Assembly (NCBI GenBank): GCA_965229565.1
Contig: OZ245888.1
Location: forward strand, 37,801-101,800
Source: Gammaproteobacteria bacterium
GTDB lineage: Bacteria > Pseudomonadota > Gammaproteobacteria > Eutrophobiales > Eutrophobiaceae
Length of the DNA: 64,000 nt
Direction: 5' to 3'
The position numbers and the translations under genes are program-made. Positions 14,871 through 53,748 of this stretch are shown here, in pieces (the first letter of the stretch is position 1; every line of letters begins with the position of its first letter). A model generated the notes under the pieces. It had not been told where the DNA came from, searched no databases, and was given only the letters and a program-made list of their open reading frames with translations.

Positions 14871-14886
14871 TTTCCTTAACCTGTGA

Positions 14887-32788: not shown

Positions 32789-32834
32789 ATATGATTAAAT
32801 TTACAGTAATGTAGATACATGAACTGAACGACTC

Positions 32835-34985: not shown

Positions 34986-34987
34986 GA

Positions 34988-35218
34988 TTATTCCTCCTTA
35001 TGAAGTGAATGGTCATCATGCGAACCATGGCTATGACCATGACTACCATGCATGAAAAAATGCATTAATGGACAAAGTAAAAATATCAAATAGGGTAAGT
35101 ATGGAACTATATGCGCCCAATGTTCAGTGATTAAAAGATAAGCAACAAACCCCATAAAGACCCACATCACAGAATTGTGCTTTTTTATTTGTTTGGCATG
35201 CGTATCGTGTTCATTCAT
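34988..35218 (-). CDS. Small membrane protein with His-rich C-terminus (DUF2933-like)
   Basis: 76 aa with two TM helices followed by HGSHGHSHGSHDDH. Confidence 0.45.
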   Translation of the reverse strand: MNEHDTHAKQIKKHNSVMWVFMGFVAYLLITEHWAHIVPYLPYLIFLLCPLMHFFMHGSHGHSHGSHDDHSLHKEE

Positions 35219-35251
35219 GATGGCATCCTCGATAAATAAATATTATTAGCG

Positions 35252-35527
35252 TCAACATGAACCAGATTTGGTATTTTTTGAAACTACGTAGTTATAAATC
35301 GGAACCCAAATTAAAGCGAAGTACCAACCATAGGCATAACTTTCTATTGCCCCTATAAAAAAACTTTTCCAGTTAATAAACTCAAACCCTGGCAAAAGAT
35401 CTTGCCATGCCTTAAACATGGCATGTTCAGGGAATAATAAATCAAACGCAACGCAGATTGAAAAAGTAAACAACAATAACAAACTCGTTGCATGACCAAA
35501 TGCCAATAGCGATAGTCTTCTGTTCAT
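35252..35527 (-). CDS. Small integral membrane protein, hypothetical
   Basis: 91 aa, 3 TM helices, no recognisable motif. Confidence 0.35.
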   Translation of the reverse strand: MNRRLSLLAFGHATSLLLLFTFSICVAFDLLFPEHAMFKAWQDLLPGFEFINWKSFFIGAIESYAYGWYFALIWVPIYNYVVSKNTKSGSC

Positions 35528-35602
35528 ATGGCTATTCCTTATTTAACAAATTGTGTCTCGAACATGCATGTTGTTAATCACACACATCCGAGACACTTTT
35601 AT

Positions 35603-35926
35603 TTAATGATGTTTTCTAGGGTCAAGCCTCCAGACTTTACCCTCATCAATCATTACCTTGCCACCGTCCTTCAGTTCCATTGGCGGATGATGTCGTCTGG
35701 GATCCAGACGCCATACATTCTTGTTTTTCATCATAATTAATGTGCCATCTTCCAACTCCATTGCAACACCATCTTTCATTTTAATAGAGTTACCGTCTTT
35801 ATCCTCCATCCTCATTGTTTCATCATCATTAATAATCAAATAAGAACCATCTTTTAATGACAACTTTTCAGCTGCCATTGCAGAGAAACTTACCATTAAT
35901 AACAAAATGTATATTAATTTACGCAT
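35603..35926 (-). CDS. Periplasmic Met-rich copper-binding protein, CopK-like
   Basis: Signal peptide followed by LKDGSYLII..MRMEDKDGNSIKMKDGVAMELEDGTLIMMK, with an internal duplication VWRLDPR(R/K)HH. Confidence 0.45.
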   Translation of the reverse strand: MRKLIYILLLMVSFSAMAAEKLSLKDGSYLIINDDETMRMEDKDGNSIKMKDGVAMELEDGTLIMMKNKNVWRLDPRRHHPPMELKDGGKVMIDEGKVWRLDPRKHH

Positions 35927-35966
35927 TACTTTTCTCCTTTTAATTAAAAAGTAAACATGCTTTTTT

Positions 35967-36248
35967 TCACAGAACTTCTTTGTCTTCCTCCTTTAGGTTG
36001 AGATATTGTTCCGGATTATCATCAAATTTATCCAGACAATTTTTTGAACAAAATCGATAAAGCTGACTCTCATATATTTTTCCATAGCCCTTATCAGGTT
36101 CGACATGCATGCCGCAAACAGGATCAGCATGATTTGGTTGACTATGCGAGTGAGTGTGAGAGCCATGAACCATATGAGCACCACAACCAAAACGCATCAT
36201 CAAGTAAAAGAATAATGCGAATAACAAAAATGAACCTAAACCTTCCAT
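35967..36248 (-). CDS. YHS-domain membrane protein with His-rich segment
   Basis: TM helix, HGSHTHSHSQPNH, and a YHS motif (DPVCGMHV...YRFCSKNC). Confidence 0.55.
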   Translation of the reverse strand: MEGLGSFLLFALFFYLMMRFGCGAHMVHGSHTHSHSQPNHADPVCGMHVEPDKGYGKIYESQLYRFCSKNCLDKFDDNPEQYLNLKEEDKEVL

Positions 36249-36306
36249 AACGTTACCCTCATGCTTAACCTGTTTTAAAGCATTAAAAATTCTTCCTCAT
36301 ATAAAT

Positions 36307-38829: not shown

Positions 38830-39036
38830 CTCTCCTTTATTTAAACGTTATTCATTAATATTCTGTCCATGCATATGTTCCATGTCTTTTATCATGGCAC
38901 CAATAATAAAATAAGGATATTCCAGTCCGTCTGAAAGATGATATTTAAAGTCAAAGTATGTCCTGCATAAAATATCAATACGCCTATTAAAAACGCAATA
39001 TTTCCTAGAAAAGCCGCCAATTCGCACCATGTATAA

Positions 39037-39474
39037 CTAAGTAATACTCTCTATCAAATGACATATGGAGTCGCCAACCGGAATAGAATCGTCCATGTTT
39101 TCCCATTGCCGTAATGCTTTTTCCATTCTTTTTTGTAATACCATTGCTTCATTAAATTGATTTTTATTCTTTTCTATCCTTTTCTTAATTATATCCCTCA
39201 CCAATGGGCAAGGGCTTTCGCTTTTTTCACTTGCTATAATAATCTGCTTAATTTCATTAAGCGTATATCCCAATATTTTTGCTTTTCCTATAAATTTCAA
39301 GCGAATCAGATCTGCATGACTGTACATCTGATAATTATTGGTTTTATTTCGTACTGGCTTTAGTAATCTCTTTTTTGTATAAAATCGGACCGCGTCAGTT
39401 GTCACATGGGCTGCATCAGCAAGTTCCTTAACCTGATAAAAACTTATTTTTTTACTATACACTTCTGAATTCAT
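39037..39474 (-). CDS. MerR-family transcriptional regulator
   Basis: N-terminal HTH (VKELADAAHVTTDAVRFYTKKRLLKP) and a coiled-coil dimerisation region. Likely start is MNSEVYS (39474) rather than the ORF-track 39504. Confidence 0.65.
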   Translation of the reverse strand: MNSEVYSKKISFYQVKELADAAHVTTDAVRFYTKKRLLKPVRNKTNNYQMYSHADLIRLKFIGKAKILGYTLNEIKQIIIASEKSESPCPLVRDIIKKRIEKNKNQFNEAMVLQKRMEKALRQWENMDDSIPVGDSICHLIESIT

Positions 39475-39690
39475 TAGCATCGACACCAAAAATGTTTCAT
39501 ACACGTAATTACTCTATTAATTCATCAGTCTAAAACATAGGTCTTAGACACAGGTCAAGCCTGACTTTGATTTTATATAATTCCCATAACTCTGTCTCAA
39601 CCACTACCATATTATTTTTAAATTTTCTCATGTCTATATCTATTCTAATTTTATTATTCATAAATAGTTTGGTTTCTATATATCTAGAAG

Positions 39691-40008
39691 CTATTTATTT
39701 TTTATACTGTCATTATTAATCTTAATCACATCATCAACAGGTGAAATTGATATGAAGCCATCATCATATGTGCCCGCATATGCATTGGTAACAATACAGT
39801 CAGTAATTTTTTTTATGCCTTCTTCTTCTGATACTATTTCTACACGTATATGTGTAATTAGGTCTGGCATTTCAAATAATCTGTGTGGGTTTTCGTAACC
39901 ACTCACACCAACAGTAGTGATATGTGGCACATTCAATTCTTTAAGTTTTGTTTTAATCTGCGCGAGCATTTCGCTGCGGATCACGGCAGTCACTTTTTTT
40001 AGCCTCAT
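39691..40008 (-). CDS. P-II (GlnB)-like small protein adjacent to the RND pump
   Basis: 105 aa with a P-II-like N-terminus (MRLKKVTAVIRSEMLAQIKTKLKELNVPHITTVGVSGYE). Confidence 0.4.
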   Translation of the reverse strand: MRLKKVTAVIRSEMLAQIKTKLKELNVPHITTVGVSGYENPHRLFEMPDLITHIRVEIVSEEEGIKKITDCIVTNAYAGTYDDGFISISPVDDVIKINNDSIKNK

Positions 40009-40058
40009 AATTTCACCTGTTATTTATTTTTTGATAACTTTAAATGAAAATTTACAAG

Positions 40059-43000
40059 TCAAAATTTCAGCGCATAGTTCTTCCATACAAAATAAACAAC
40101 TGGAATTACGATCAATGTTAAAGCTGTCGCACTTATCATCCCTCCGATCATGGGTGCTGCGACACGCGTCATAATTTCAGAGCCTGATCCTTTTATAAAC
40201 ATGATTGGAAGTAAGCCGGCAACGGTCGAACATGTTGTCATCATGATAGGTCTGACACGTTGGCTTGCAGCATCGATAATATTGCTAATCAACTTTTCTC
40301 TACTAATCTTTTTTTCTGGTGAATCAATAGATTTATTTAGAAACTCAAGCATAACAACGCCAGACTCAACTGCGATACCTGCTAATGCGATAAAACCCAC
40401 GCCGACAGCTACAGATAAATTATAATTTAAGAGATATAAAAACCATGCCCCCCCACCAAGCGCAAAAGGCAAAAAGCCCATGATTAAAAATACATCACCT
40501 AATTTTTGAAAGTTAAGATAAAGCAAAATAAATATAATGACTAAGGTAATTGGCACAACGATAGTTAACCGCTCCATTGCCCTTAGCATATATTCATATT
40601 GTCCGGACCAACTTATAGAATAACCTGAAGGTAAATCCACATTTTTTGCAACATGTTCTCGAGCTTCATTCACGTAACTGCCCAAATCACGACCTTTTGT
40701 ATCAACGAATATCCAGCCATTTATTCGCGCATTTTCGCTTTTTATCATTGGTGGGCCATCTGTTATATTTACAGATGCTACATCCTCTAACGGGACTCTC
40801 GCACCAGATGGCGTCACTACGGGCAATAAACGTAATTGTTCCAGTGAGTCACGAAGTTCATGTGGATAGCGGATATTTATTGGATAACGCTCCAGTCCCT
40901 CTACTGTTTCAGCAACATTCATCCCGCCTACTGCAGTACGAACAATGTCCTGAATATCACTGATATTAAGCCCCAATCTAGCGGCATCAATCCTATTAAT
41001 ATCCACAATAAGGTAGCGTCCGCCTGCAACTCGCTCCGCATAAACCGAAGCAGTACCTGGAACATCTTTAAGTGCTTTTTCAATCTGACGGCCGATATCT
41101 TCAATAACTTCAAGATCTGTACCGGCAATTTTTATACCAACAGGAGTCTTTATACCGGTAGCTAACATATCGATACGTGTTTTAATTGGCATTACCCATG
41201 CGTTAGTAATTCCAGGCAATTTTACTAAAGCATTAAACTCTGCTTTTAGTTTTTCAAGTGTCATACCCTCACGCCATTCATTACGAGGTTTAAAACGAAT
41301 AAGTGTTTCAATCATTGTTAGAGGAGCTGGGTCAGTTGCTGTTTCAGCACGGCCAATCTTTCCAAATACGGTATCAACTTCCGGGACAGTACGAATCAAT
41401 TTATCCGTCTGCTGTATAATTTGCTGCGCCTTGCCAATGGAAATAGCAGGCAATGTTGTCGGCATATACATCAAGTCGCCTTCATCCAGATCCGGCATAA
41501 ACTCACTACCTAACTGAGTGAATGGCCAGAGTCCGATAACCATGATCAATAATGCAACAAATACTGTTGAAATAGGGAAATGAAGCACGAATCGTATGAT
41601 TGGCTCATAAAAAATATTTAATAAACGGGTTATAGGATTTTTTTCCGAGGATATGACCCGGCCTTTTACAAAATATCCCAGTAACACAGGCACGACAGTA
41701 ACAGCAAGAATGGTTGCTGATATCATTGCATAAACCCAGGTAAATGCCAGTGGTGAAAACATACGGCCTTCCTGCGCCTGTAGTGTAAAAATAGGTAATA
41801 CACTTAGTCCGGTTATGAGCAAGGAAAAGAACAATGGCGGTCCCACTTCTGTTGTTGCCTTCATAATAACTTTCCAATGATCAGCATCATCATTATTTCG
41901 TTCAATATGTTTATGAACGTTATCAATCATGACGATTGCAGCGTCAACCATGACGCCTATTGCAATAGCAATTCCTCCCAAAGACATAATATTGGCATTG
42001 ATTCCCTGAATATTCATAATGATAAATGCCATTAATATCCCAAGAGGGAGACTAATAATAACAACCAAGGCGGACCGAAAATGTAGAAGAAAAAAGATAC
42101 AAACCAACACCACTAAAAGTAGTTCCTGTAGCAATGCATCTTTTAACGTTTTAATTGCCCGTTCAATTAAGCCGGAACGATCGTAGGTTTCAACAATTTC
42201 GACGCCATCTGGCAATCCTTTTTTCAGCTCGTTTAACTTTTCTTTAACGGAATCGATTACTCTTTTAGCATTTTCACCCCAGCGCATTACGATAACGCCA
42301 CCAACTACTTCTCCCTCACCATTAAGTTCAGCTATACCACGGCGTAACTGTGGGCCGATTCGTACTTGTGCTACGTCTTTGAGTAAAATCGGCGTTCCTC
42401 TGACATTGACACCTAACGGAATATTACGTAATTGTTCAAGACCGGTAATATAACCGGTAACCCTGACCATATATTCAGCTTCTGCCATTTCAATAACAGA
42501 TGCCCCTGCTTCTTGATTGGCTTTTTTAATAGCATTGCTAATTGTTGAAATGGGAATATCGTAGGCACGTAACTGATTAGGATCGACAATTACCTGGTAT
42601 TGTTTGACCATTCCACCAATAGTGGCAACTTCAGCAACACCTGGAACAGTTTGTAATTCATATTTCAGGAACCAGTCTTGCAATGATCGCAATTGTGATA
42701 AGTCATGATTCCCTTTTCGATCAACCAAAGCATATTCATAGACCCAACCTACTCCTGTAGCATCAGGACCAAGTTCAGGCTTAGCACCTGGAGGTAATCT
42801 ACTCGTCACCTGACTTAAGTATTCAAGTACTCTGGATCTTGCCCAATATAAATCCGTTCCTTCTTCAAAAATGACGTAGACATATGAATCACCAAAAAAA
42901 GAATATCCCCTGACAGTAACAGCATAAGGAACAGATAACATTGCAGTGGTTAGTGGGTAGGTAATCTGATCTTCAACAACCTGCGGCGCCTGCCCCGGAA

Positions 43001-43157
43001 AAGGTGTTTTTATTATGACTTGCACATCAGAAAGGTCCGGTATTGCATCTACTGGCGTCTGCTTAATGATATATACGCCACTAATCATGACAACGACAGT
43101 AGCAAGTATAATTAAAAATCGATTATTGATTGACCATTTTATGATCTGCTCTATCAT
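40059..43157 (-). CDS. cusA: Heavy-metal efflux RND transporter, CusA/CzcA family
   Basis: 1032 aa with the 12-TM RND topology and an HME-type N-terminus (PVDAIPDLSDVQVII...). Confidence 0.85.
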   Translation of the reverse strand: MIEQIIKWSINNRFLIILATVVVMISGVYIIKQTPVDAIPDLSDVQVIIKTPFPGQAPQVVEDQITYPLTTAMLSVPYAVTVRGYSFFGDSYVYVIFEEGTDLYWARSRVLEYLSQVTSRLPPGAKPELGPDATGVGWVYEYALVDRKGNHDLSQLRSLQDWFLKYELQTVPGVAEVATIGGMVKQYQVIVDPNQLRAYDIPISTISNAIKKANQEAGASVIEMAEAEYMVRVTGYITGLEQLRNIPLGVNVRGTPILLKDVAQVRIGPQLRRGIAELNGEGEVVGGVIVMRWGENAKRVIDSVKEKLNELKKGLPDGVEIVETYDRSGLIERAIKTLKDALLQELLLVVLVCIFFLLHFRSALVVIISLPLGILMAFIIMNIQGINANIMSLGGIAIAIGVMVDAAIVMIDNVHKHIERNNDDADHWKVIMKATTEVGPPLFFSLLITGLSVLPIFTLQAQEGRMFSPLAFTWVYAMISATILAVTVVPVLLGYFVKGRVISSEKNPITRLLNIFYEPIIRFVLHFPISTVFVALLIMVIGLWPFTQLGSEFMPDLDEGDLMYMPTTLPAISIGKAQQIIQQTDKLIRTVPEVDTVFGKIGRAETATDPAPLTMIETLIRFKPRNEWREGMTLEKLKAEFNALVKLPGITNAWVMPIKTRIDMLATGIKTPVGIKIAGTDLEVIEDIGRQIEKALKDVPGTASVYAERVAGGRYLIVDINRIDAARLGLNISDIQDIVRTAVGGMNVAETVEGLERYPINIRYPHELRDSLEQLRLLPVVTPSGARVPLEDVASVNITDGPPMIKSENARINGWIFVDTKGRDLGSYVNEAREHVAKNVDLPSGYSISWSGQYEYMLRAMERLTIVVPITLVIIFILLYLNFQKLGDVFLIMGFLPFALGGGAWFLYLLNYNLSVAVGVGFIALAGIAVESGVVMLEFLNKSIDSPEKKISREKLISNIIDAASQRVRPIMMTTCSTVAGLLPIMFIKGSGSEIMTRVAAPMIGGMISATALTLIVIPVVYFVWKNYALKF

Positions 43158-43160
43158 GAT

Positions 43161-44468
43161 TTATTCCTCGCCCATATCCATTTGTTCCATTGAGTTATTA
43201 CTCATGGGTTCTTCAACGGATTGCATTCGACTCAGACTGGCTTTGAGATTTGATTCGGAATCAATCAAAAATTGTGAAGAGGTAACAACATTATCTTCTT
43301 TGTTTAATCCCGAAATAATTTCCACCCTATCTCCACTTTCAATACCTGCTACAACTTCCTGCGCATGGAAACGACCATCACCAAGCATTTTAATAACTCG
43401 TTGCTGTTTAGCATCTCGTATCAAGGCTTCACGTGGAATACTTAATGCCTCCTTTTTTTCTCCAGCATAAACAGTAACGTGCGCGTACATATTCGGCATT
43501 AATTTTTCTTCGGAGTTATCAAAACGTAACCGAATGCGTAACGTCCGTGTAACAGGATCAAGATCAGGGTAAATATATTCAACTTCACCTTTCCAGATAA
43601 CACCCGGCATTGAAGGTAATGTAGCTTCTGCACTTTGACCTATTTCAACCCAATTCGCTTGTCGTTCAAATACTTCAGCTAACAACCAAATCGTATCAAG
43701 ATTGGCAATACTTAATATCTGGGTCTCCGGTTTGATATACATTCCTTCACGTACACCAAGATTTATTAACACACCTGATTGTGGCGCATAAAAACGAATA
43801 TTCTGGGTAACTCTTTTTTCTTTTTCCAATCTATCAATCTGAGACTTTGAAATACCCAATGCAGAAAGCTTCTCTTTCGATGCTTCTGCCAGTGATCGAT
43901 TGCCACCCGCTAATGCCTGTAAGTATTCTTCCTGTGCATTTACCAATGGTGGAGAATAAAGCTCAAATATAAGTTGCCCACGTTTAACCTCTTCTCCCTC
44001 AGCACGAACTTGTAGTTTTTCTATCCAACCTTCTGTTCTTGTATGAATATGATTAATTCGTGTTTCGTCGTAATCAATATAACCAACCGTACTTATTCTT
44101 TTCCATAGAGGTCCGAGTTCAACCCTGGTTGACCGTACGCCCAGATTATTGATCACCTCTGGACTTATTTTGACTACAGATGTCTCCTCATCCATGTTCT
44201 CTTCACTGCCTTCATAAACAGGAATAAGGTCCATGCCCATTGGAGACTTTCCAGGTTCATCCCGACGATAGCCTGGATTCATAGGAGCAACCCAATACAT
44301 TATTTTCTTCTCTTTTGATTCAGAGTTTGAATGCCCCGTATGCCCATCCGGATTCATGTCCATATTGAACTTGAACACTAGTTGCGAGGTATCAAATTTC
44401 TTTTCAATGAAAGCGCCAACTAAAATCCCGATGGCAAGCAGAATTAATATCTGAATTATTTTTTTCAT
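43161..44468 (-). CDS. cusB: RND periplasmic adaptor (membrane fusion protein), CusB-like
   Basis: N-terminal anchor with HlyD/biotin-lipoyl-like and beta-barrel domains. Overlaps the cusC stop. Confidence 0.75.
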   Translation of the reverse strand: MKKIIQILILLAIGILVGAFIEKKFDTSQLVFKFNMDMNPDGHTGHSNSESKEKKIMYWVAPMNPGYRRDEPGKSPMGMDLIPVYEGSEENMDEETSVVKISPEVINNLGVRSTRVELGPLWKRISTVGYIDYDETRINHIHTRTEGWIEKLQVRAEGEEVKRGQLIFELYSPPLVNAQEEYLQALAGGNRSLAEASKEKLSALGISKSQIDRLEKEKRVTQNIRFYAPQSGVLINLGVREGMYIKPETQILSIANLDTIWLLAEVFERQANWVEIGQSAEATLPSMPGVIWKGEVEYIYPDLDPVTRTLRIRLRFDNSEEKLMPNMYAHVTVYAGEKKEALSIPREALIRDAKQQRVIKMLGDGRFHAQEVVAGIESGDRVEIISGLNKEDNVVTSSQFLIDSESNLKASLSRMQSVEEPMSNNSMEQMDMGEE

Positions 44469-45730
44469 ATCGTTTCTCTTACGTAATACAATAGATTGGC
44501 TTGTGACTTGGCACGATCAACACGAATCTTCAACATATCTAGTTGTGTATTTAACTCAGTTAATCGAGCACGCATTAATGTTGTAAAGTCAGTTAGATCA
44601 TTTTGATACGCTTTTAACGTGGATGATGAATTTTGCTCGGCATCAACCATTGCTCTTGTTTCATATAATTCAAGTCGTTTACCAAGACGTATCCAATTCG
44701 CATATTCCTTTTCCAACGACTGTCTGAATTCCAGTAAACGATCGCTGCGCGCGAACTGTGAGGCCGCGTGATCCAGCTTGCTCGCAGATAGGCGTTTATC
44801 CTGTCTTTTATTCGTGAAGATAGGCAGATCGACCAGGATCATGGCCGAGGCAAAGTCATCCCTACTACTACCATCCAGATTATTACCTGACCGGTTACCG
44901 TAGGTGAGATCAAGCATCCAACCCGGCTTGTATTGCTGTTCAGCAAGATTAATATCCTTCTCGTTAACCGCAATCATGGCATCTTCAATTTGAATTCTGG
45001 GATGTCGAGGTAATTCCTGGACCAGTTGCTGTAAATCTCTTATCGGCGTTAAGAAGGGAAAGTTGTCGCTTACCCTGTCAAATTGAATACTGTTACCGAG
45101 CCAACGTTTCAACTCGGCCAGTGTCATGGCATGCTTGCCCTGAACCTCTACCAGGCGGTCATCAACCAATGACAGTTCAAGTTGTGCACGCAGCACATCA
45201 TGCTGGTTATCTCGCCCCACTGCATATTGCCTTTCGGTCACTTCCAGTAACTGGCTGAACAAATCACGATTTTCGAGTAATAACTTTTCTGTCTCCTGGC
45301 TAAGGTAAACATCCAGGTAATTGCTGCGTACTGATAACAAGACATTGCGGGCCTGTAACCTTGCTCGTGCGGCATCAATGTCTGCATAATGCCCGGTCTT
45401 TTCCTGCCGCAGTTCTAACGTGTCGCCACGCGGAAAAGACTGCTGTATTCCAACCTGTACCTGCGTCATTGGTTCCTGACTTCGATCGAAACTGTTTATT
45501 GGTAGATTCATCATGCCAAACTTCATAACGGGATCAGGCAATTGGCCTTCAGCAACAGCTAATTCATCATATTTTTCAGCCGTTACTTCAAGCTTCTTGA
45601 TGGTCAAATCAGATGAAAGAGCAAACTCTTCTGCTGCTTGCAACGTCAATTCATTTGCAAATAATTGCGTAGAAACAATGGCAGATAAAATAATCAGAAA
45701 TAATTTATTTAGTATGGATAGGCCCATCAC
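44465..45730 (-). CDS. cusC: Outer-membrane efflux protein (TolC family), CusC-like
   Basis: Signal peptide and two OEP repeats. 421 aa. Confidence 0.75.
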   Translation of the reverse strand: MMGLSILNKLFLIILSAIVSTQLFANELTLQAAEEFALSSDLTIKKLEVTAEKYDELAVAEGQLPDPVMKFGMMNLPINSFDRSQEPMTQVQVGIQQSFPRGDTLELRQEKTGHYADIDAARARLQARNVLLSVRSNYLDVYLSQETEKLLLENRDLFSQLLEVTERQYAVGRDNQHDVLRAQLELSLVDDRLVEVQGKHAMTLAELKRWLGNSIQFDRVSDNFPFLTPIRDLQQLVQELPRHPRIQIEDAMIAVNEKDINLAEQQYKPGWMLDLTYGNRSGNNLDGSSRDDFASAMILVDLPIFTNKRQDKRLSASKLDHAASQFARSDRLLEFRQSLEKEYANWIRLGKRLELYETRAMVDAEQNSSSTLKAYQNDLTDFTTLMRARLTELNTQLDMLKIRVDRAKSQANLLYYVRETI

Positions 45731-45801
45731 ACACCTCGTTTATTAAAAATAAGACGAACTTTTGATCTGTGAATACAGATCAATAATAAAGAGGGTGGTG
45801 T

Positions 45802-46251
45802 TTAAATCAGGAGTTTGTTATAGAGAGAAACAGGTGAGTTTTGAGCAAGCGCAGACGACCTGTCTGGAACAACATGCTCTATGCAGAAATTGAAAGTGTA
45901 GCCGGATTTTTTATGAATAATATAAACAATATCAGGGGAAAACTTGTAACTGTTCTTTTCTTTATTTTGTTCCTTGGAGTGCATCAGAATGGTGCTTTCA
46001 TCGCAATCACAAACGCCAGTACAATGTTCTTCAGTTTCGTAATTCTGTGTCAGGTCGGCTTGCTGCGAATCATCATGACAGTGTTCCAATTCAACAACTT
46101 TATCATGCAGCGCTGCACTATTGACTTCATCATTCGCAAAACAAGACTGGCACAATAACAATAACCAGGCGCCCATAAACAACGATAAGGTTGCTATGGC
46201 CATGGTTTGTTGCCTTTTTCTAATTAGTGCGAACATTGATATTCCTGTCAT
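45802..46251 (-). CDS. Secreted Cys/His-containing hypothetical protein
   Basis: Signal-peptide-like MAIATLSLFMGAWLLLLCQSCFA. Mature region contains HCHDD...EEHCTGVCDCDE. No confident family. Confidence 0.35.
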   Translation of the reverse strand: MTGISMFALIRKRQQTMAIATLSLFMGAWLLLLCQSCFANDEVNSAALHDKVVELEHCHDDSQQADLTQNYETEEHCTGVCDCDESTILMHSKEQNKEKNSYKFSPDIVYIIHKKSGYTFNFCIEHVVPDRSSALAQNSPVSLYNKLLI

Positions 46252-46332
46252 TTAACAGATTAAATATCGCCCGATTTGACTTGGAAATCAATAGCAAGTA
46301 AAGAAATGATAGGGGAAAAAGCATCATTTATT

Positions 46333-46761
46333 TTAATGCTGGACATGACTGGCATCCGCCAGTGTATCTACGGTGCTCCAGATCAGCTTGCTTTTGTAGG
46401 TCACCATGCTGGGGGCAGATGAAATATGAAACAGGTGGTTAATCATCAAATCATGAATATCCTTGAATTCATGGTCCATGATCAGGCGCATACCCCAACC
46501 TGTGAATTTTCTTTGCTCGATATCATGCCGGATATAGTGTGTGATTCGATGACGGTTATCCCGGTAAATGGAATCAAACAGTTGTTGTAAATCCGTCTCT
46601 TCACTCTCGATGTACTGGATAAAGCGGTCTTCGCTATCGTAGGAAAGGTAACCGGTAATATTGTTATTTTTGTTCCTGGCTGCGGCAGTTTGTGCCAATT
46701 GTGTCAATTCATCTTCTGAAAAAGGATTTGTTGCCCTACTTATATAAACCAGACCTTTCAT
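46333..46761 (-). CDS. BLUF-domain blue-light FAD photoreceptor (short, stand-alone)
   Basis: LVYISRA...ITGYLSYDSEDRFIQYIESEE...LFDSIYRDNRH matches the BLUF signature Y-x-S...ITG-L-Y...F-Q-x-E...D-x-RH. Confidence 0.7.
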   Translation of the reverse strand: MKGLVYISRATNPFSEDELTQLAQTAAARNKNNNITGYLSYDSEDRFIQYIESEETDLQQLFDSIYRDNRHRITHYIRHDIEQRKFTGWGMRLIMDHEFKDIHDLMINHLFHISSAPSMVTYKSKLIWSTVDTLADASHVQH

Positions 46762-46828
46762 CTATTTCTGCTTATGAACTATTAAAGTTTTTGTTTAATT
46801 ATTTTAGTCAACATTAAATAAATGTCAC

Positions 46829-47695
46829 TTAAATATTAATGGCGAGAACCTGACTCAGGTCAATGCAGTTGGAAGCGTGAGGAATAGTGTTACAGGTAAC
46901 GACCCTGGCTGCACCTGCCTGTTTAATCTGCTGCCATGCAGCATCGGCAAATACAGCGTGGATTCCAATGCATACCGGGGCTGAAAGCCCTGCCGCAAGT
47001 AAATGCTTAATGGTTTCTATCATAGTTTTACCGGTAGAAATAATATCATCAAATAATACTGGCGTGCAGTCTGTCCATTTTTCAACCTGCGGCACAATCA
47101 CTTCCACATCCCGGTCGCCTCGCCTTGTCTTTTCCAAAACTAAAAATGGTGCGCCACTGTTTTTTGCCAACTTTTTAACCCACTGTGCGCTTTCACTGTC
47201 GGGGCCTATAATGACCGGCGAACTAACGTTAGCTTTTAACCAATTACTGACGGCAGGTGCAGCCCTGACCAGTTTTGTTTCAATAGAATATATATCAGCC
47301 AGATCGTGGATTCGGTGCAAATGAGGATCTACAGTAACCAATTTATCAAAACAGGATGATAAGAGTCTGGCATAGTAACGGGCCGTAACACCTTGCCCAC
47401 TTTTGAAAATCTTATCCTGCCGCATGTAGGCAAGATAAGGCGCAACGAGTGTGATGTGCTGCACTCCATAGTCACGTAGTGTATGTGCAAGAAAAAAAAG
47501 AGGCAGCGTGATATTATCAGGTTGCACCAGGCTAGCGTAAACAACACAAGAATCGGCAATCAGCTCTGGTTCGATTTGAATACAACTCTCGCCATCCGGG
47601 AAACGATGACATTCAACGATACTGCAGGCCGTTCCCAGTTCTGTAGCCAGTGCCTGGGCAGGTTCTTGCTGCTGTGCAAATGCAAAGACAGTCAT
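46829..47695 (-). CDS. Ribose-phosphate pyrophosphokinase (PRPP synthetase)-like PRTase-fold protein
   Basis: PRPP-binding loop VLFDDIISTGKTM with the two-domain Prs-like organisation. 288 aa, with a divergent N-terminus. Confidence 0.6.
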   Translation of the reverse strand: MTVFAFAQQQEPAQALATELGTACSIVECHRFPDGESCIQIEPELIADSCVVYASLVQPDNITLPLFFLAHTLRDYGVQHITLVAPYLAYMRQDKIFKSGQGVTARYYARLLSSCFDKLVTVDPHLHRIHDLADIYSIETKLVRAAPAVSNWLKANVSSPVIIGPDSESAQWVKKLAKNSGAPFLVLEKTRRGDRDVEVIVPQVEKWTDCTPVLFDDIISTGKTMIETIKHLLAAGLSAPVCIGIHAVFADAAWQQIKQAGAARVVTCNTIPHASNCIDLSQVLAINI

Positions 47696-47707
47696 TGATA
47701 TAACAAT

Positions 47708-49219
47708 TCAGTTCGGGTTGATAACAATGATATCTTCCTGCGCGTTGATATAGTCGAGGGCATAGGCCAGTTCCCCTGCGGATTCGGCATGGAGTGTAAA
47801 TAGCGGCTGGTTGTTGTCCACTGATTGTCCCTGTCTTATATGAAGATCGATCCCGGCCGCTGCGGCCAATGGCGCACCCGCGAGCTTGGCACAGAGTGCC
47901 AGCCGCCTGTTGTCGATACTTTGTACAGTTCCCGCCTGGCGGGCCAGATGTTCATGCTGGAATCTTGCAAGTTTCAAAGTGCGCATACCGCCCTGTGCCT
48001 CGCAGATAGCCTGGAATTTATTCCAGGCTGTACCGTTGTTTAGTATGTTCTCGGCGATCACAAAACCTTCATCGCTGGCTACTTTGCCCGAAAATTCCAG
48101 GATTTCACCAGCTAGCACCAATGCCTTTTCCCGAAGGTCTTGTGGCGCATCCGGATCGTTTTGCAAAACCTGTAGCACATCCCTTGCCTCCAGCGCTGGT
48201 CCAATTCCACGACCAACAGGTTGCTCACCCACAGTGAGCTTGACGCGGACATTCATATCAATTTCGGAGCCTATATCGACCAGCGTATCCGCTAGTTGTC
48301 TGGCCAGGTTCATGGAACGGACCTTTGCTGTCTCCCCCACGGGAACATCAATCAGTACATGCGTGGAACCTGCCGCAGATTTTTTAGAAAGCACCGATGC
48401 GATCAACTGCCCCTCACTATCTATATCAAGCTGTCTTTCGACCGATATCAAAATGTCATCTGCGGGACTGATTTGCATGGCGCCGCCCCAGACGATGCAG
48501 CCATTTTCCTGGTATACAACACGTTGCATCTGTTCAATAGTGAGATTGACCGGTGCCAGCGTCTCCATGGTATCTGCCGTGCCAGCCGGCGAAGTGATGG
48601 CACGTGATGAGGTTTTAGGCATAATCAGTCCAAAGGCAGCAATGATAGGTACCAGGATGATAGTCGTGCGATTACCAGGTAGCCCACCAACACAATGTTT
48701 ATCCACCACGATATCACTGTCCCAGTAAAGGCGGGTACCGGCATTAATCATGGCGCGGGTAAGCGACACAATTTCATCCATGTTCAGTCGGTTACCTGCA
48801 CACGCCGTAATGAATGCAGACAGGTGAATATCATCAAAATTTCTGGCGACAATATCCTGAATGATGGCATCAAATTGCCATTGTTCCAGTGCGCGACCAT
48901 GGATCTTGGCACGCACATAGGAGAGTGACTGCATCGGTTCGGGATGAGATAGAAAAGCAATGTCATCTTCCTGTGCATGTAATATTTCCCAGGCCGCATC
49001 GGACAAACCTAACTCCCCCGAACGCAGGATAGAGTCCCGGATTATATGTAAGGTCGCGATTATCGATCGTTCCCTGATGCGCACATTGATCCGTGAAAAC
49101 GCTTCAAAGCCCTCGATTCGACAAATTGGGCAATCGTGACGCATATAGATGACTGCCTGTCGGTAGGTATCAATACCGATACGTTTTACCCGCATGGTAT
49201 TTTTATTCTTGTTATCCAT
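47708..49219 (-). CDS. Thymidine-phosphorylase-family protein, long form (putative thymidine/AMP phosphorylase-like)
   Basis: Glycosyltransferase family 3 (nucleoside phosphorylase II) core preceded by a ~90 aa N-terminal extension. 503 aa. Confidence 0.65.
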   Translation of the reverse strand: MDNKNKNTMRVKRIGIDTYRQAVIYMRHDCPICRIEGFEAFSRINVRIRERSIIATLHIIRDSILRSGELGLSDAAWEILHAQEDDIAFLSHPEPMQSLSYVRAKIHGRALEQWQFDAIIQDIVARNFDDIHLSAFITACAGNRLNMDEIVSLTRAMINAGTRLYWDSDIVVDKHCVGGLPGNRTTIILVPIIAAFGLIMPKTSSRAITSPAGTADTMETLAPVNLTIEQMQRVVYQENGCIVWGGAMQISPADDILISVERQLDIDSEGQLIASVLSKKSAAGSTHVLIDVPVGETAKVRSMNLARQLADTLVDIGSEIDMNVRVKLTVGEQPVGRGIGPALEARDVLQVLQNDPDAPQDLREKALVLAGEILEFSGKVASDEGFVIAENILNNGTAWNKFQAICEAQGGMRTLKLARFQHEHLARQAGTVQSIDNRRLALCAKLAGAPLAAAAGIDLHIRQGQSVDNNQPLFTLHAESAGELAYALDYINAQEDIIVINPN

Positions 49220-49248
49220 ATCTGGGCAAAATTACGGCTTCCAGGTTT

Positions 49249-50619
49249 CTACTTAATTACCACAGACTGTCCATGCACCGGGATTTCTACATTCCATCCC
49301 AGTTGATTAACCAGATAGCTACGAAATGCATCCTGGCTCTGTGGCTCACCATGAACAATATAAGTCATCCGAGGCCGCCCAGGCATGGTTGCCAACCAGT
49401 CGGTCAACTCCTGGTAATCGGCATGTGCTGACAGGCAATCTATTGATGTCAGTTTCGCCCGTACCGGGTAATACTCCCCGTGGATCTTGATTCGGTCCAT
49501 GCCTGCCAGCATGTTTGCACCACGAGTTCCTTCTGCCTGATAGCCTACAAAGATTATCGTGTTGCGATTATCACCAAGGTATACTTTCAAATGATGTAGA
49601 ACCCGGCCACCAGTCAACATCCCGCTCGCGGACAGGATTATCTTCGGTACTGACTGAAACTCGATTCCCTTCGACTCCTCGACAGCAGGTGTAAAAGTCA
49701 CCAGTTGGCCAAGTTTATGACACTCATCTTCACTGAGTTTGTGTAAATCCTTGTGGCGGAAAAAGATATCGGTTGCATCAATCGCCATTGGGCTATCGAG
49801 GTATATCGGTACCCTGGGTATCCTTTTTTCAATAATCAATTTTGTGATCACGTGTAACAGACTTTGTGCTCGACCCACAGCAAAGGTGGGTATCAACACG
49901 GCTCCACCCTTGCCAAACGTGCTATTAATAACTTTTTCCAGCAATTCAAATGGATCGGCTTCAGGGTGTCTGCGATTTCCATAGGTTGATTCGATCACCA
50001 GGAAATCTGCATTGGGTAATGACTCCGGCGCATGCATCACTACATCATCAGGTCGTCCTACATCACCGCTGAACAGGATACTCTTTTCACCATCATGCAC
50101 ATGGACACAGGCAGCACCAAGTATATGGCCGGCATTAGTCATTGATACCTTGATACCTGGCACTGGTTCGAAGGACTGGTGATAGGCAACTGGAAAAAAT
50201 TGTTCCAGTGAACGATAGGCATCCATTTCGGTGTAGATTGGCAGGGCTGGATGGTGTTTCGTATAGCCGTATCGGTTGGCGCGATCCGCTTCTTCCTCTT
50301 GCAAATGTCCTGCATCCGGTAACAGGATTCTGCAGAGATCCATCGTCGCATGCGTGCAGTAAATTTTACCTTTGAAGCCTTCTCTGCAAAGAGCCGGTAT
50401 AAAACCACTGTGGTCAAGGTGAGCATGGGTTAACACAATGGCATCGATAGTGCCTGGCTCAACAGGAAATGGTTGTCTGTTCCTGATCCGAATCTTTTTT
50501 ATCCCCTGGAAAAGTCCACAATCAATGAGTATCCGTTTGTCGTCTTTTTCCAGCAGAAACCTTGAACCGGTAACTGTTTCGGCCGCACCCCAGAATGTCA
50601 GCTTACAGCCCACAGGCAC
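49249..50619 (-). CDS. MBL-fold metallo-hydrolase of the beta-CASP family
   Basis: HxHxDH motif (LTHAHLDHSG) followed by downstream beta-CASP motifs. 456 aa. Confidence 0.7.
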   Translation of the reverse strand: MPVGCKLTFWGAAETVTGSRFLLEKDDKRILIDCGLFQGIKKIRIRNRQPFPVEPGTIDAIVLTHAHLDHSGFIPALCREGFKGKIYCTHATMDLCRILLPDAGHLQEEEADRANRYGYTKHHPALPIYTEMDAYRSLEQFFPVAYHQSFEPVPGIKVSMTNAGHILGAACVHVHDGEKSILFSGDVGRPDDVVMHAPESLPNADFLVIESTYGNRRHPEADPFELLEKVINSTFGKGGAVLIPTFAVGRAQSLLHVITKLIIEKRIPRVPIYLDSPMAIDATDIFFRHKDLHKLSEDECHKLGQLVTFTPAVEESKGIEFQSVPKIILSASGMLTGGRVLHHLKVYLGDNRNTIIFVGYQAEGTRGANMLAGMDRIKIHGEYYPVRAKLTSIDCLSAHADYQELTDWLATMPGRPRMTYIVHGEPQSQDAFRSYLVNQLGWNVEIPVHGQSVVIK

Positions 50620-50896
50620 CTCTCTTTCGGTTTTATTGTAAGCGTTATAACAATCGCAACATTTATTGACGAGTACAGGTCAGAAGCAATGCGCCGGACT
50701 GTCCTGCTGTCAATTGTTATTATTATAGTTGACTTAACTTTATAATGGACTACAAAAAATACTTGATATTATTTTATACACTGCTATTGCATTGGTAGTC
50801 AGCGTATTAGAACATTCAAACAGGTATAGTATTAATAACCAATAACGATAAACAGACTGAATAGAGAATCTAGCTGGTGTCATTCCAGGCAGAAGT

Positions 50897-50995
50897 GAAC
50901 ATTCCAGTTAAAAGAATCCTGGTAACCGGTGCAACCGGTTACATTGGCAGGCACGTGGTGAAGAAACCGGGTGACCATACCATGTTCTCATGAGT
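50897..50995 (+). pseudogene. 33-codon remnant of an NAD(P)-binding SDR/epimerase N-terminus
   Basis: Encodes VNIPVKRILVTGATGYIGRHVVKKPGDHTMFS then a stop, overlapping the hydrolase start as ATGA. Confidence 0.3.
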
Positions 50996-51907
50996 AGTGA
51001 CTCACTTAACCACGCCCTGCCGGGTCAACGCCGGGAGCTAAAAAGTAATGCGGGCATTATTAGTTACTATACTGATGCGCCTGCAAATACTGACAACAAC
51101 ACACCTTTGCTGTTAATACATACGATTAATGCGGCCGCCGGCGCCCATGAAGTGCGCCCCCTGTACGAACAATATCGACAGACGCGCCCGGTCTATGCGC
51201 TGGACTTGCCCGGTTATGGTTTTTCGGAGCGCAGTGACAGGGATTACACGCCACGGCTGATGACAGATGCCATTCACAACATCGTAGCGGAAATACAAAC
51301 AATTCATGGGGACGTAGATATTGATGCTTTGGCCGTGTCCACTTCCTGCGAGTTCCTGGCACGGGCCGCGCATGAAAACACCTCAAGCTTTCGTAGCCTG
51401 GCACTGGTAGCGCCGACCGGTTTCAGCAGAATGTATCCCTACAAGGGAGAAGAATTAAGTAACAGGGGTATGCCAGGTTTTCTCAAGTTCCTGAAACTAC
51501 CTTTTGTCGGTGGAGCTTTATTTAACCTGCTTACATGCAGGAAAAGCGTTCGATTTTTCCTGCAAAAAACCTGGGGCTCAAAACAGATCGATGAAACCAT
51601 GTACGAGTATTCATGGCAGACGACACGACAACCCGGTGCGCGCTTCGCACCTTTTTACTTTTTATCCGGTTATCTATTCAGCCAGGACATCAATGCCATT
51701 TACGAGGACTTGTCTGTTCCCGTATGGATGAGTCATGGTGTGCGTGGTGACTTTACGAACTATTGCTGGAAGGAAACACTGAAAGATAATAGCAACTGGA
51801 ACTTTAGCGTGTTTGAAACAGGTGCATTATCGTATTACGAGGTGTTGAATGATTTCTGCCAGAATTACGATGCATTCCTGTCATCGCTGGCAGCAAAAAA
51901 CAGCTAG
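50990..51907 (+). CDS. Alpha/beta-hydrolase fold protein
   Basis: 305 aa with an alpha/beta-hydrolase core. The nucleophile motif is not clear-cut. Confidence 0.55.
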   Translation: MSSDSLNHALPGQRRELKSNAGIISYYTDAPANTDNNTPLLLIHTINAAAGAHEVRPLYEQYRQTRPVYALDLPGYGFSERSDRDYTPRLMTDAIHNIVAEIQTIHGDVDIDALAVSTSCEFLARAAHENTSSFRSLALVAPTGFSRMYPYKGEELSNRGMPGFLKFLKLPFVGGALFNLLTCRKSVRFFLQKTWGSKQIDETMYEYSWQTTRQPGARFAPFYFLSGYLFSQDINAIYEDLSVPVWMSHGVRGDFTNYCWKETLKDNSNWNFSVFETGALSYYEVLNDFCQNYDAFLSSLAAKNS

Positions 51908-51910
51908 AAG

Positions 51911-52129
51911 TCAGGCGCAATCCTCTTTTTCTTCCTCTTTTTCCAGGTGCTCGGCAAGCTGTTCCAACACGAGTTTGGCCGAATACTGGAGATCGACCAG
52001 GCGAACCTGTGTCAATTTGCTCAATTCATTAGCGAGCCTGACATCCTGTACATCAGACATCAGTAACTCAATCTTATGCATGAGCTCAGCGAGCTGCTGA
52101 TCGCTATCAAATTTATTTTTTGCGTCCAT
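51911..52129 (-). CDS. Small acidic coiled-coil hypothetical protein
   Basis: 72 aa, predicted helical, no recognisable motif. Confidence 0.3.
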   Translation of the reverse strand: MDAKNKFDSDQQLAELMHKIELLMSDVQDVRLANELSKLTQVRLVDLQYSAKLVLEQLAEHLEKEEEKEDCA

Positions 52130-52491
52130 CTAATACATCGAGGCCTTGCTGCAATGCACAAAGTATAAACCTTCAAGCTGTAATTGCAAGGCGAGTAATA
52201 TTATTAATATTCAATCATTTATCTAAATAAAATAGTAAATCTTACTTAGCTGTTTGATTTAAACCGCAAACCTTAATAAATTCATTTATATAACGCTGTG
52301 ATAATCAGGGGAAACCTCCCTGATACTTCAAAAGAAGGTTAAAGGGTTGTTTTTAAGAGATTTAATTTAAACAAGTGCAGATGCACCAAATTGAGCGCAT
52401 CGCGCCTAAATGCTGCAGTCAAGCTGCATTACAGTTGTCGATGTCTGGTTTGTTAGCCTTATAGCAAGTATTAGCCACGTTTGGCGCTATT

Positions 52492-53748
52492 TCAGGAGAA
52501 AGTCATTGTTCTCTCGGTGGGTAGTTCATCGATATCCCCTGCCATGATGCGGTTACGAACATAAACACTGATTCGGTAGCGTTCCATATCCTGAAGGTCA
52601 TGAAAACTTACACCGATAGAGATATCGTCCTGATCCTCGTTGAGGTCTTTCCATAACACTGTCGCATTCGTGGTGACCTTGAGGTAATCATCCTCGGAAT
52701 CAGATGGAATATAAAATTCCAGGAAAAGTTTACTCCCCAGTTCGATGTCAGAGGTAACACGCAGGTTGGCACCGCTGACGGAAAGATTCACTTTCTCTGC
52801 AAAGATAAAACCCTCATCAGGCTGACATTGAATTCTTACCTTGAGTGTCACAGCGGCACGATGATCCCAGCGCAATTCTTTATCCATATCTTCTATGTTG
52901 CAATCGATACCCATTGCTTTTTCCAGGGCCAGTGCAAACTCACGACAGGAATGGAAACGTTTACGCGAATTCTTTTCCAGTGCCTTCAGTACCACCTTGT
53001 CAACTTTCTCGGGAATATCCTTGACCAAGCTTGATGGTTTATTAACCGGTGTTTCCTGATGACTTTTGAGCATCTCGCTGACAGTGCTGGCTTTTGTAAA
53101 AGGATGTCTGCCGGTCAACATCTTGTAGAGGATGATCCCAAGCGAATAAATATCTGCACGGGCATCCATGTGCTGGCAATTGATATGTTCCGGTGACATG
53201 TAACCCGGTGTACCGTTGGGTTTACCTTCAAGGAAAGACTGTTCTTCAAGAAATTTGGCAATACCAAAATCCATAATCAACACTTCACCACTGAGACTGA
53301 TGCGGATATTGCCGGGCTTCAAGTCGAGATGAACAATACCAAGGTTGTGTGCATATTCCATTGCCCACAGTATCTTTTGCATGATCTTTAGCGCCTGGCT
53401 TACCTTGAATGGTTTTTTTTGATTGGCAAGTATCTGATCCAGGTCGCCACCGCTGATCAGGCGCATAACGATCAGTACCGATTTCTTATAATCCAGGATG
53501 TCGTACACGGGGACAATATTGGAGTGTTCTGCCAGCGCGTGTATGCGGGCCTCGCGGATGATGGATTCCTTGTTGAATTTCCTGTTCACCAGGTCAGTTG
53601 AACGGACCTTGATCGCGACATATCGCTGTAGCTCATGGTCATAGGCCTTGTACACGTCTCCGAAGGTGCCACTGCCAATGACGTCCTTAAGCTCGTACCG
53701 GCCTATCCTTGTTCCCTCTAGCGTCACTGGTTTGGTCTTCGCGAACAT
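52492..53748 (-). CDS. Hanks-type Ser/Thr protein kinase fused to a C-terminal PilZ (c-di-GMP-binding) domain
   Basis: - Kinase motifs: GSGTFGDVYKA, VAIK, HLDLKPGNI, DFGIAK, SPE.
- C-terminal ~130 aa carries RWDHR (RxxxR) and, 27 residues later, NLSVSG ((D/N)xSxxG). Confidence 0.6.
   Translation of the reverse strand: MFAKTKPVTLEGTRIGRYELKDVIGSGTFGDVYKAYDHELQRYVAIKVRSTDLVNRKFNKESIIREARIHALAEHSNIVPVYDILDYKKSVLIVMRLISGGDLDQILANQKKPFKVSQALKIMQKILWAMEYAHNLGIVHLDLKPGNIRISLSGEVLIMDFGIAKFLEEQSFLEGKPNGTPGYMSPEHINCQHMDARADIYSLGIILYKMLTGRHPFTKASTVSEMLKSHQETPVNKPSSLVKDIPEKVDKVVLKALEKNSRKRFHSCREFALALEKAMGIDCNIEDMDKELRWDHRAAVTLKVRIQCQPDEGFIFAEKVNLSVSGANLRVTSDIELGSKLFLEFYIPSDSEDDYLKVTTNATVLWKDLNEDQDDISIGVSFHDLQDMERYRISVYVRNRIMAGDIDELPTERTMTFS

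Follow-up and report, generated by a model that had tools for sequence, protein, structure and literature searches.

A beta-CASP hydrolase, an AMP-phosphorylase-like protein and a PRPP-synthase paralogue encoded beside a copper-resistance island: a possible mobile module for nucleotide and ribose-phosphate recycling

Why would genes for an RNase-type hydrolase, an adenosine monophosphate (AMP) phosphorylase-like protein and a second phosphoribosyl pyrophosphate (PRPP) synthase be encoded side by side, and does the photoreceptor gene next to them belong to the same system? The question arises in contig OZ245888.1, of which we analyzed positions 37,801 to 101,800 of the forward strand. This stretch of 64,000 nt is termed the window, and all coordinates below are window positions. 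We propose that the three genes (the triad) form one operon, and that this operon is one representative of an accessory module that is widespread and horizontally mobile and that recycles nucleotides and ribose phosphate under stress, a reading to which we give about an even chance of being correct. The proposal builds directly on gene order and its conservation, the protein families, intact motifs, plasmid mobility, copper linkage and a low-oxygen induction published for one species. The genes are as follows:

49249-50619, minus strand: MBL, a beta-CASP metallo-beta-lactamase-fold hydrolase, predicted to be of RNase type; first gene of the triad (456 aa, GTG start)
47708-49219, minus strand: TP-like, an AMP-phosphorylase-like protein of the 'thymidine phosphorylase family' (503 aa)
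46829-47695, minus strand: Prs-like, an accessory class-III-like PRPP synthase paralogue (288 aa)
46333-46761, minus strand: BLUF, a short photoreceptor (142 aa, PF04940); an adjacent resident gene outside the module

An earlier reading of the same DNA (the original prediction) had described these four minus-strand genes, and the open reading frames (ORFs) returned the same coordinates, strand and spacing; its domain calls for all four were borne out by Pfam. The intergenic gaps are 29 nt between MBL and TP-like, 12 nt between TP-like and Prs-like, and 67 nt between Prs-like and BLUF. Inspection of the sequence also revealed an alternative GTG start for MBL at 50613, with a better-placed AGAGAGG ribosome-binding site.

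Conservation of the arrangement was evaluated in 80 loci from different other species, which were fetched with an alignment of 17 TP-like proteins and scored by tblastn with the window proteins. Flanking sequence was sufficient for pairwise adjacency in 74 loci. The loci span Alpha-, Beta- and Gammaproteobacteria, Bacteroidota, Acidobacteriota, Planctomycetota, Leptospira and Legionella, and triad synteny reaches Chlamydiota as well, on a Criblamydia plasmid. In 59 of 74 loci, Prs-like directly follows TP-like on the same strand. MBL directly precedes TP-like in 38 of 74, and 46 of 74 have it somewhere inside 10 kb. All three genes are adjacent in 28 of 68 loci, and TP-like is found without either partner in only four of the 68. 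This arrangement is far beyond chance. The original prediction had staked itself on the three genes being syntenic in other genomes, and they are syntenic across several phyla (59/74 and 38/74 for the two pairs).

The module is also mobile. TP-like matches occur in 126 PLSDB plasmid records, Prs-like matches in 110 and MBL-like matches in 228, and many of these plasmids are conjugative. The counts for TP-like, Prs-like and MBL-like matches run in parallel within taxa (29/29/28 in Sphingobium, 7/7/7 in Ralstonia and 5/5/5 in Legionella). Annotated plasmid copies in Sphingobium, Ralstonia and Acidovorax have 4-nt start/stop overlaps between the triad genes, and the Legionella copy has overlaps of 4 nt at TP/Prs and 43 nt at MBL/TP. 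These overlaps indicate co-translation. The operon family is already visible in annotations and in two expression tables, and the window copy is an ordinary member of it. We found no functional study of the triad in the openly accessible full-text literature, only expression tables and a low-oxygen locus of Burkholderia cenocepacia, so the original description of the module as uncharacterised stands.

There is no universal fourth partner gene. The immediate neighbours are heterogeneous in a count of neighbour families across the 80 loci, and the divergent alpha/beta hydrolase gene and kinase-PilZ gene that precede the triad in the window were detected by tblastn in none of them. Genes that do recur nearby include those for phosphoketolase, acetate kinase, PPK2, tandem universal stress proteins, CBS-domain and ATP-cone/Mrr proteins, type II GAPDH and 2-hydroxyacid dehydrogenase, which point to energy or phosphate stress, as well as a UbiB-type kinase.

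Two of these neighbourhoods have features of their own. On Acidovorax plasmid p1-T1 (L099, positions 1-17263), and also in loci L023, L025 and L026, a co-directional run of at least 16 genes is present. In L099 it encodes PPK2, a P1B ATPase, MFS, LemA, two TPM proteins, MBL, TP, Prs, a trypsin-like peptidase, VTT, DUF6629, a methyltransferase, a hydroxyacid dehydrogenase, a UbiB-type kinase and type II GAPDH. The last of these is the archaeal type of GAPDH, here encoded in one run with TP-like and Prs-like, whose closest solved relatives are archaeal enzymes. A protein of ~280 aa with an ATP-cone and an Mrr-type nuclease domain is encoded immediately 5' of MBL in many loci (the Criblamydia plasmid L084, L098 and Bacteroidota L037-L051) and is absent from the window.

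What might the enzymes do? TP-like contains the Pfam domains Glycos_trans_3N, Glycos_transf_3 and PYNP_C, in the three-domain TP/PyNP fold with an N-terminal extension of ~85 residues (503 aa compared with ~440 aa in classical thymidine phosphorylases). It clears the NCBIfam models for the 'thymidine phosphorylase family' (NF003338, 689.4 vs cutoff 434; TIGR02645, 604.9 vs 434.6) and falls below the classical TP/PyNP equivalogs for DeoA and Pdp (NF004490, 228.8 vs 269; TIGR02643, 157.1 vs 570.7; NF004747, 165 vs 559). The AMP_phos model aligns end to end, with residues 9-499 matching model positions 2-492 of 500. The closest solved relative is the AMP phosphorylase of Thermococcus kodakarensis (4GA5, E 4e-105), compared with ~1e-41 for classical thymidine phosphorylases, in agreement with the original assignment to a long AMP-phosphorylase-like type. 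Among 67 homologues, conservation of the active-site motifs DKHxxGGLPGNRTT, PKTSSRAITSPAGTAD and SKK is 95% or higher, and the 'GGxPGN(K/R)T' loop is common to TP-like and the T. kodakarensis enzyme. The latter phosphorolyses all nucleoside 5'-monophosphates (NMPs) and dNMPs to the base and ribose-1,5-bisphosphate (PMC8376864). From these sequence relationships, TP-like is predicted to be a nucleoside-5'-monophosphate phosphorylase. A CxxC redox or metal motif in its N-terminus was considered, as neither C30 nor C33 varies among 17 sequences, but the idea was dropped because C33 alone is retained across 67.

Prs-like contains the Pribosyltran_N and Pribosyltran domains. It clears NF005537 (392.1 vs cutoff 322) and the general Prs model TIGR01251 (191.4 vs 113), and does not reach the housekeeping class I Prs models (NF002320, 123.3 vs 297). 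Its closest solved relative is the class III PRPP synthase of Methanocaldococcus jannaschii (1U9Y, E 3e-40). The motifs FPDxE, RQD, DPHLHR, KxRxGD and DDIxSxxxT are conserved among 44 syntenic homologues. The ATP, catalytic-loop and ribose-5-phosphate-loop motifs are retained, and all elements of the PRPP synthase motif set (FxDGE, RQD, His, KxR loop and DDxxxTGxT loop) are present. Prs-like may thus make PRPP from ribose-5-phosphate and ATP.

The third protein, MBL, contains Lactamase_B, Beta-Casp (8e-36) and RMMBL (2e-17) domains, and its closest solved relative is the Thermus thermophilus RNase TTHA0252 (2DKF, E 6e-78). The motifs HxHxDH, GHIxG, GD, ESTYG, SxHxD and HGE are conserved in 37 syntenic homologues. 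As in beta-CASP ribonucleases, the protein has three domains, MBL motifs 1-4 and beta-CASP motifs A-C with a histidine in motif C. The HGE form of motif C goes with the RNA-acting members of the beta-CASP proteins, and we predict an RNase-type hydrolase. Two narrower identities were rejected. The match to Cas14 of type VII CRISPR systems reaches 384.9 bits against a cutoff of 800, covers model positions 2-425 of 612 and leaves the C-terminal part (426-612) unmatched, and no cas genes are neighbours. The match to archaeal aCPSF1 reaches 298.5 against 580.2 and begins at model position 176, whereas aCPSF1 is characterized by N-terminal KH domains.

On these predictions the module could work as a short salvage route, in which we infer every enzymatic step, the direction of flux and the physiological trigger in this organism. 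The beta-CASP enzyme would degrade RNA to 5'-mononucleotides. The AMP-phosphorylase-like enzyme would then convert NMP and phosphate to the free base and ribose-1,5-bisphosphate, and the accessory Prs paralogue would keep PRPP available, either from ribose-5-phosphate and ATP or by phosphorylation of ribose-1,5-bisphosphate. Sugar and bases would be re-used once normal supply fails, for example under low oxygen or copper stress.

The published expression data concern oxygen. The core microoxic proteome of Bradyrhizobium diazoefficiens comprises 62 proteins, among them the products of bll3117 (thymidine phosphorylase family protein), bll3116 (ribose-phosphate pyrophosphokinase) and bll3115 (MBL fold metallo-hydrolase), with protein log2 fold changes of 2.1, 4.4 and 2.9 and transcript fold changes of 5.1, 7.7 and 15.4, respectively (PMC6515984, including its Table 2). 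These three genes constitute one predicted, FixK2-dependent operon with a FixK2 box at -74. Expression in a fixK2 mutant is down 6.6-fold for bll3117 and 30.6-fold for bll3115, and a phosphoketolase-acetate kinase operon is co-regulated with these genes (PMC9104804). Low-oxygen control of a like-named operon is therefore published in one species, a FixK2 link that the original prediction had missed. The low-oxygen locus of B. cenocepacia includes a 'metal-dependent RNase', BCAM0300, which is 30-fold up at low oxygen; a term search of the paper found no phosphorylase in that locus (PMC3721108).

The presumed control region of the window triad is the following:

50620-50989, no strand: divergent intergenic region 5' of the triad, between MBL and the alpha/beta hydrolase gene; presumed promoter region

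A perfect 9+9 palindrome, GTAACCGGT-gca-ACCGGTTAC, occurs in this region at 50922-50942 and may be an operator site. It is upstream of both flanking genes, ~48 nt from the start of the alpha/beta hydrolase gene and ~300 nt from that of MBL. No riboswitch or sRNA was identified, as an Rfam scan returned only tRNAs and sub-threshold noise and no Rfam element in 50620-50989.

Several points weigh against the recycling scheme. The score of TP-like against the AMP_phos equivalog TIGR03327 (EC 2.4.2.57) is 498.5 bits, under the cutoff of 535, and its substrate could thus differ from that of AMP phosphorylase. MBL is absent from ~40% of TP-Prs loci, and MBL-like genes occur on many plasmids without TP-like, so that the RNase could be less tightly tied to the other two. 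The scheme is weakest in the part assigned to Prs. AMP is a product of PRPP synthase and is destroyed by AMP phosphorylase, and a naive pairing of the two would amount to an ATP-consuming cycle. We found no measured activity for any bacterial member of the triad families in the openly accessible literature. The bll3115-bll3117 operon is equated with the triad only through the names in its annotation, and the region upstream of MBL (50620-50989) contains no FNR/FixK-type box at up to two mismatches.

The genomic setting of the triad suggests a second source of stress. On one side the window encodes, in order, recA, alaS, lysC, csrA, tRNA-Ser, tRNA-Arg, the kinase-PilZ gene, a small ORF, the hydrolase and then the triad. 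Past Prs-like, the order is BLUF, a Cys/His-rich small ORF, CusCBA, a MerR-type regulator, a P1B ATPase, an ICMT-like gene, glutamate dehydrogenase, PcoA and PcoB (from ORFs and Pfam):

30150-46251, minus strand: flanking copper-resistance island (ORFs, Pfam)
45802-46251, minus strand: Cys/His-rich small ORF (149 aa)
40059-45730, minus strand: CusC, CusB and CusA (Pfam)
39037-39504, minus strand: MerR/CueR-type regulator (Pfam)
36307-38829, minus strand: P1B ATPase (CopA) with two HMA domains (Pfam)
34332-34985, minus strand: ICMT-like gene (Pfam)
within the 30150-46251 island, between the ICMT-like gene and PcoA, minus strand: glutamate dehydrogenase gene (Pfam)
30992-32788, minus strand: PcoA (Pfam)
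30150-30995, minus strand: PcoB (Pfam)

The small ORF lies 71 nt upstream of cusC and has no Pfam or NCBIfam match. Its product has an N-terminal hydrophobic segment and the Cys/His-rich stretches HCHDD and EEHCTGVCDCDES, and an ORF of 133 aa holds its position in L081, a related 2.75-Mb contig. On these features it is a candidate copper-binding protein of the periplasm, encoded as part of the cus operon. The GC content is 0.35-0.42 over 34-46 kb (the CusCBA-MerR-CopA stretch), compared with 0.45-0.53 elsewhere in the window, and the Cus cluster is only ~66% identical to the cluster at the same position in L081. Together these values suggest a separately acquired copper island beside the triad.

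Homologues of the window's copper genes occur within 10 kb of the triad in 34 of the 80 other loci, with P1B ATPases in 27-30 of them, and copper linkage was found in seven of eight annotated plasmid loci. As a rough, uncomputed estimate, a P1B ATPase would be expected in ~1% of random 20-kb stretches. Some clusters are tight. In L088 the co-directional order is MerR-OEP-multicopper oxidase-ATPase-PPK2-MBL-TP-Prs-MacB/YHS, and in L082 it is ATPase-YHS-x-PPK2 fragment-MBL-TP-Prs, with a MerR gene just upstream. A Ralstonia plasmid carries HMA-DUF2933-ICMT-MBL-TP-Prs-CFA synthase-x-ATPase-MFS, and the Criblamydia plasmid carries CusA-ATPase-phosphoketolase-GlgP-ATP-cone-MBL-TP-Prs-acetate kinase. 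The triad is thus recurrently embedded in copper-resistance islands, which the original prediction had not remarked.

Does the photoreceptor gene take part? The original prediction had raised the possibility of a light-modulated nucleotide module, in which BLUF senses blue light and controls the expression or activity of the three enzymes. The BLUF domain is present (PF04940, 81.6 bits vs cutoff 25, E 5e-23), and the photoactive residues Y6, Q49, W89 and M91 are intact as read from the sequence. The gene lies on the same strand as the triad, no terminator-like site was seen in a scan of the 67-nt spacer, and the order TP-Prs-BLUF of the window recurs in three relatives (L081, L092 and L093). 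The protein has only nine detectable homologues. However, tblastn found BLUF at none of the 80 triad loci of other genomes. In three further relatives (L089, L090 and L091), a BLUF 74-79% identical to that of the window lies between the same neighbours without the triad, and an NmrA-like gene takes the triad's place. The flanks there include the divergent hydrolase (73-83% identical) and a copper ATPase, and in L089 also the kinase-PilZ gene (86%). These two sets of contexts indicate that BLUF is a resident gene and the triad a variable cassette. In addition, the Prs-BLUF spacer contains a promoter-like site:

46801-46828, minus strand: sigma-70-like promoter match in the Prs-BLUF spacer (GTGACA-16-TAAAAT, 10/12); the best match in 45700-52500, a consensus match only

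Transcription may read through from the triad into BLUF, but a functional link is unsupported. The steadier neighbour is copper. A copper gene comes next after BLUF, on the same strand, in the window, L081, L089, L090 and L092, that is, in every relative with an identifiable downstream gene. The copper gene itself differs (the Cys/His-rich ORF with CusCBA, a P1B ATPase or a PcoA-like oxidase). The BLUF-copper adjacency is therefore steadier than the BLUF-triad adjacency. The spans concerned are L089 5910-10645, L090 675-4619, L092 2449-3798 and window 45802-46761; in L091 the ORF 3' of BLUF is cut off and has no family assignment. We conclude that BLUF is not a component of the module but a neighbour with its own likely promoter, and that the association is coincidental. 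Control of the enzymes by light is extremely improbable, and the BLUF gene should not be annotated as an operon member in this window.

Other functions for the three enzymes were also considered. The copper linkage could reflect a specific rescue of PRPP supply, in which Cu(I) poisons the housekeeping PRPP synthase and the island brings a second, perhaps copper-tolerant Prs together with a route from RNA via NMP to ribose-1,5-bisphosphate, restoring PRPP while the pumps clear the metal. In Staphylococcus aureus, Cu(I) inhibits Prs in vitro, copper lowers PRPP, and overexpression of prs is protective (PMC10249872), and inhibition of the housekeeping enzyme would explain why copper islands carry a second Prs and an RNase/NMP-phosphorylase route. 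The window is consistent with this, as CusCBA, a CueR-type regulator, the CopA ATPase and PcoAB are encoded within 16 kb of the triad, and so are the frequent linkage elsewhere (34/80 loci, 7/8 annotated plasmid loci) and the tight co-directional clusters such as those of L088 and L082. Low-oxygen induction would fit too, because copper is most toxic as Cu(I) under anoxia. Yet over half of the loci have no copper gene within 10 kb, the linkage may merely reflect shared residence on mobile islands, and the copper sensitivity of Prs has been demonstrated for one Gram-positive enzyme only. Moreover, the sole expression data concern low oxygen, not copper (PMC6515984, PMC9104804). We regard a copper-specific function as possible but unlikely. 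A purely biosynthetic pairing is more doubtful still, and we consider it improbable. Here TP-like would be a PRPP-dependent phosphoribosyltransferase like its distant relative TrpD, using PRPP from the adjacent Prs to make a specialised ribotide, and MBL would process the product. A PRPP synthase beside a PRPP user is, we reason, common operon logic; TrpD belongs to the same fold family (NCBIfam TIGR01245, E 4e-11), and TP and Prs are translationally coupled in several plasmid copies. However, the E-value of TP-like against AMP phosphorylase is better than that against TrpD by ~90 orders of magnitude, the phosphorylase motifs are conserved, and tailoring or export genes are not consistently linked among the neighbour families.

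The original prediction had compared the TP-Prs pair with the archaeal AMP pathway, and a bacterial copy of that pathway would pass ribose-1,5-bisphosphate to an isomerase and type III RuBisCO. The likeness holds for the enzymes themselves, since TP-like is nearest to archaeal AMP phosphorylase, with the AMP_phos model aligned end to end, and Prs-like is nearest to archaeal class III PRPP synthase. It does not extend to the pathway. No RuBisCO active-site motif occurs in the window and the flanks of 93 loci (1.68 Mb in total, covering flanks rather than whole genomes), and neither ribose-1,5-bisphosphate isomerase nor RuBisCO turns up in the annotated neighbour clusters or in the 25 neighbour families that occur most often. 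The TP-like score falls short of the TIGR03327 cutoff, and the constant partner is Prs. A complete archaeal-type pathway is thus hardly credible here. Only slightly less remote is a system for anti-phage defence or plasmid competition, which would break down RNA and exhaust the nucleotide supply upon infection. The occurrence on plasmids and islands, the resemblance of MBL to type VII CRISPR Cas14 (NCBIfam, 385 bits) and the frequency of ATP-cone plus Mrr-type nuclease genes nearby would suit such a role. The Cas14 cutoff of 800 is far from reached, with model part 426-612 unmatched, the PADLOC 2.0 defence models gave no significant match for the three proteins (best E 0.005 and 0.0016, over short stretches only), and the neighbours are metabolic and metal genes rather than defence genes. 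The like-named Bradyrhizobium operon is also induced physiologically, at low oxygen (PMC6515984). We consider defence very improbable, and recycling of nucleotides and ribose phosphate under stress remains our preferred reading.

Additional features of the window were observed. The triad lies partly in a tract of ~4.2 kb (window 48360-52560) in which the DNA is 100% identical to L081. Within it are the small ORF, the hydrolase gene, MBL and the larger part of TP-like. Outside it, identity is ~92% towards the kinase gene and only 65-72% in Prs-like and beyond, and the BLUF proteins are 77% identical. The tract reflects either recent recombination with an end point within the operon or a chimera created when the metagenome-derived genome was assembled. 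The kinase gene at 52492-53748 (minus strand) encodes a Ser/Thr protein kinase fused to a C-terminal, c-di-GMP-binding PilZ domain; it is 86% conserved in L089, and its kinase part matches the PADLOC PD-T4-6 and Mad6 kinase models. A perfect FNR-type box, TTGATCTGAATCAA, is present at 19828-19841, beside tRNA-Arg (19663-19739) and 63 nt upstream of a radical-SAM (HemN-like) gene (19904-21280), which is followed by a CFA-synthase-like gene (21277-22602). HemN/CMAS genes like those at 19904-22602 flank the BLUF-ATPase pair in L089 and L090. Loose matches to the FNR-type box number 74 in the window, more than the 49.7 in shuffles.

The module has thousands of homologues and occurs on more than 100 plasmids, many of them conjugative, and no functional study of it was found in the openly accessible literature. 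If the proposed flow is correct, archaeal nucleotide-phosphorolysis chemistry would extend to mainstream bacteria with a different downstream partner, and recurrent unexplained passenger genes in copper islands and low-oxygen regulons would be accounted for. If instead the function is specific to copper, the triad would be the first recognised case of a metabolic bypass cassette in such islands, and an AMP-phosphorylase-type enzyme would for the first time have a physiological role in bacteria that are ordinary aerobes. It would also tie PRPP synthase, recently found to be a target of copper toxicity, to a mobile counter-measure.

Among known systems, the E. coli enzymes PhnN (ribose-1,5-bisphosphate to PRPP) and AMP nucleosidase (AMP to adenine and ribose-5-phosphate) are functional analogues from unrelated families. 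Their routes provide AMP removal and an alternative entry to PRPP. The T. thermophilus RNase TTHA0252 has the three-domain architecture and motifs of MBL, but no TP or Prs partners are reported for it. BCAM0300 of B. cenocepacia is likened to MBL by annotation, and its 30-fold induction at low oxygen is in line with a stress theme (PMC3721108). The class III PRPP synthase of M. jannaschii (1U9Y) and the housekeeping Prs have the two-domain fold and catalytic motifs in common with Prs-like; unlike the housekeeping enzyme, Prs-like is an accessory paralogue on plasmids and islands, with a family-specific KxRxGD loop.

The operon bll3117-bll3116-bll3115 of B. diazoefficiens encodes the same three annotated products as the triad, in one predicted operon, and is the source of the only expression data found for the module; the papers assign it no function (PMC6515984, PMC9104804). 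Its order is TP-Prs-MBL, whereas that of the window is MBL-TP-Prs, and it has a FixK2 box where the window triad has no FNR-type box upstream. The nearest characterised system is the archaeal AMP phosphorylase pathway. TP-like resembles the T. kodakarensis enzyme (DeoA/TK0353, PDB 4GA4-4GA6) in fold, extra N-terminal domain and active-site loops, and the chemistry (NMP and phosphate to base and ribose-1,5-bisphosphate) is likely the same, although the residue after the catalytic histidine is Cys in TP-like and Ser in the archaeal enzyme. Unlike the archaeal enzyme, TP-like is bacterial and plasmid-borne, and it is partnered by a Prs paralogue and a beta-CASP RNase rather than by ribose-1,5-bisphosphate isomerase and RuBisCO. 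Thus, the triad differs from the archaeal pathway in both its partners and its genomic setting.

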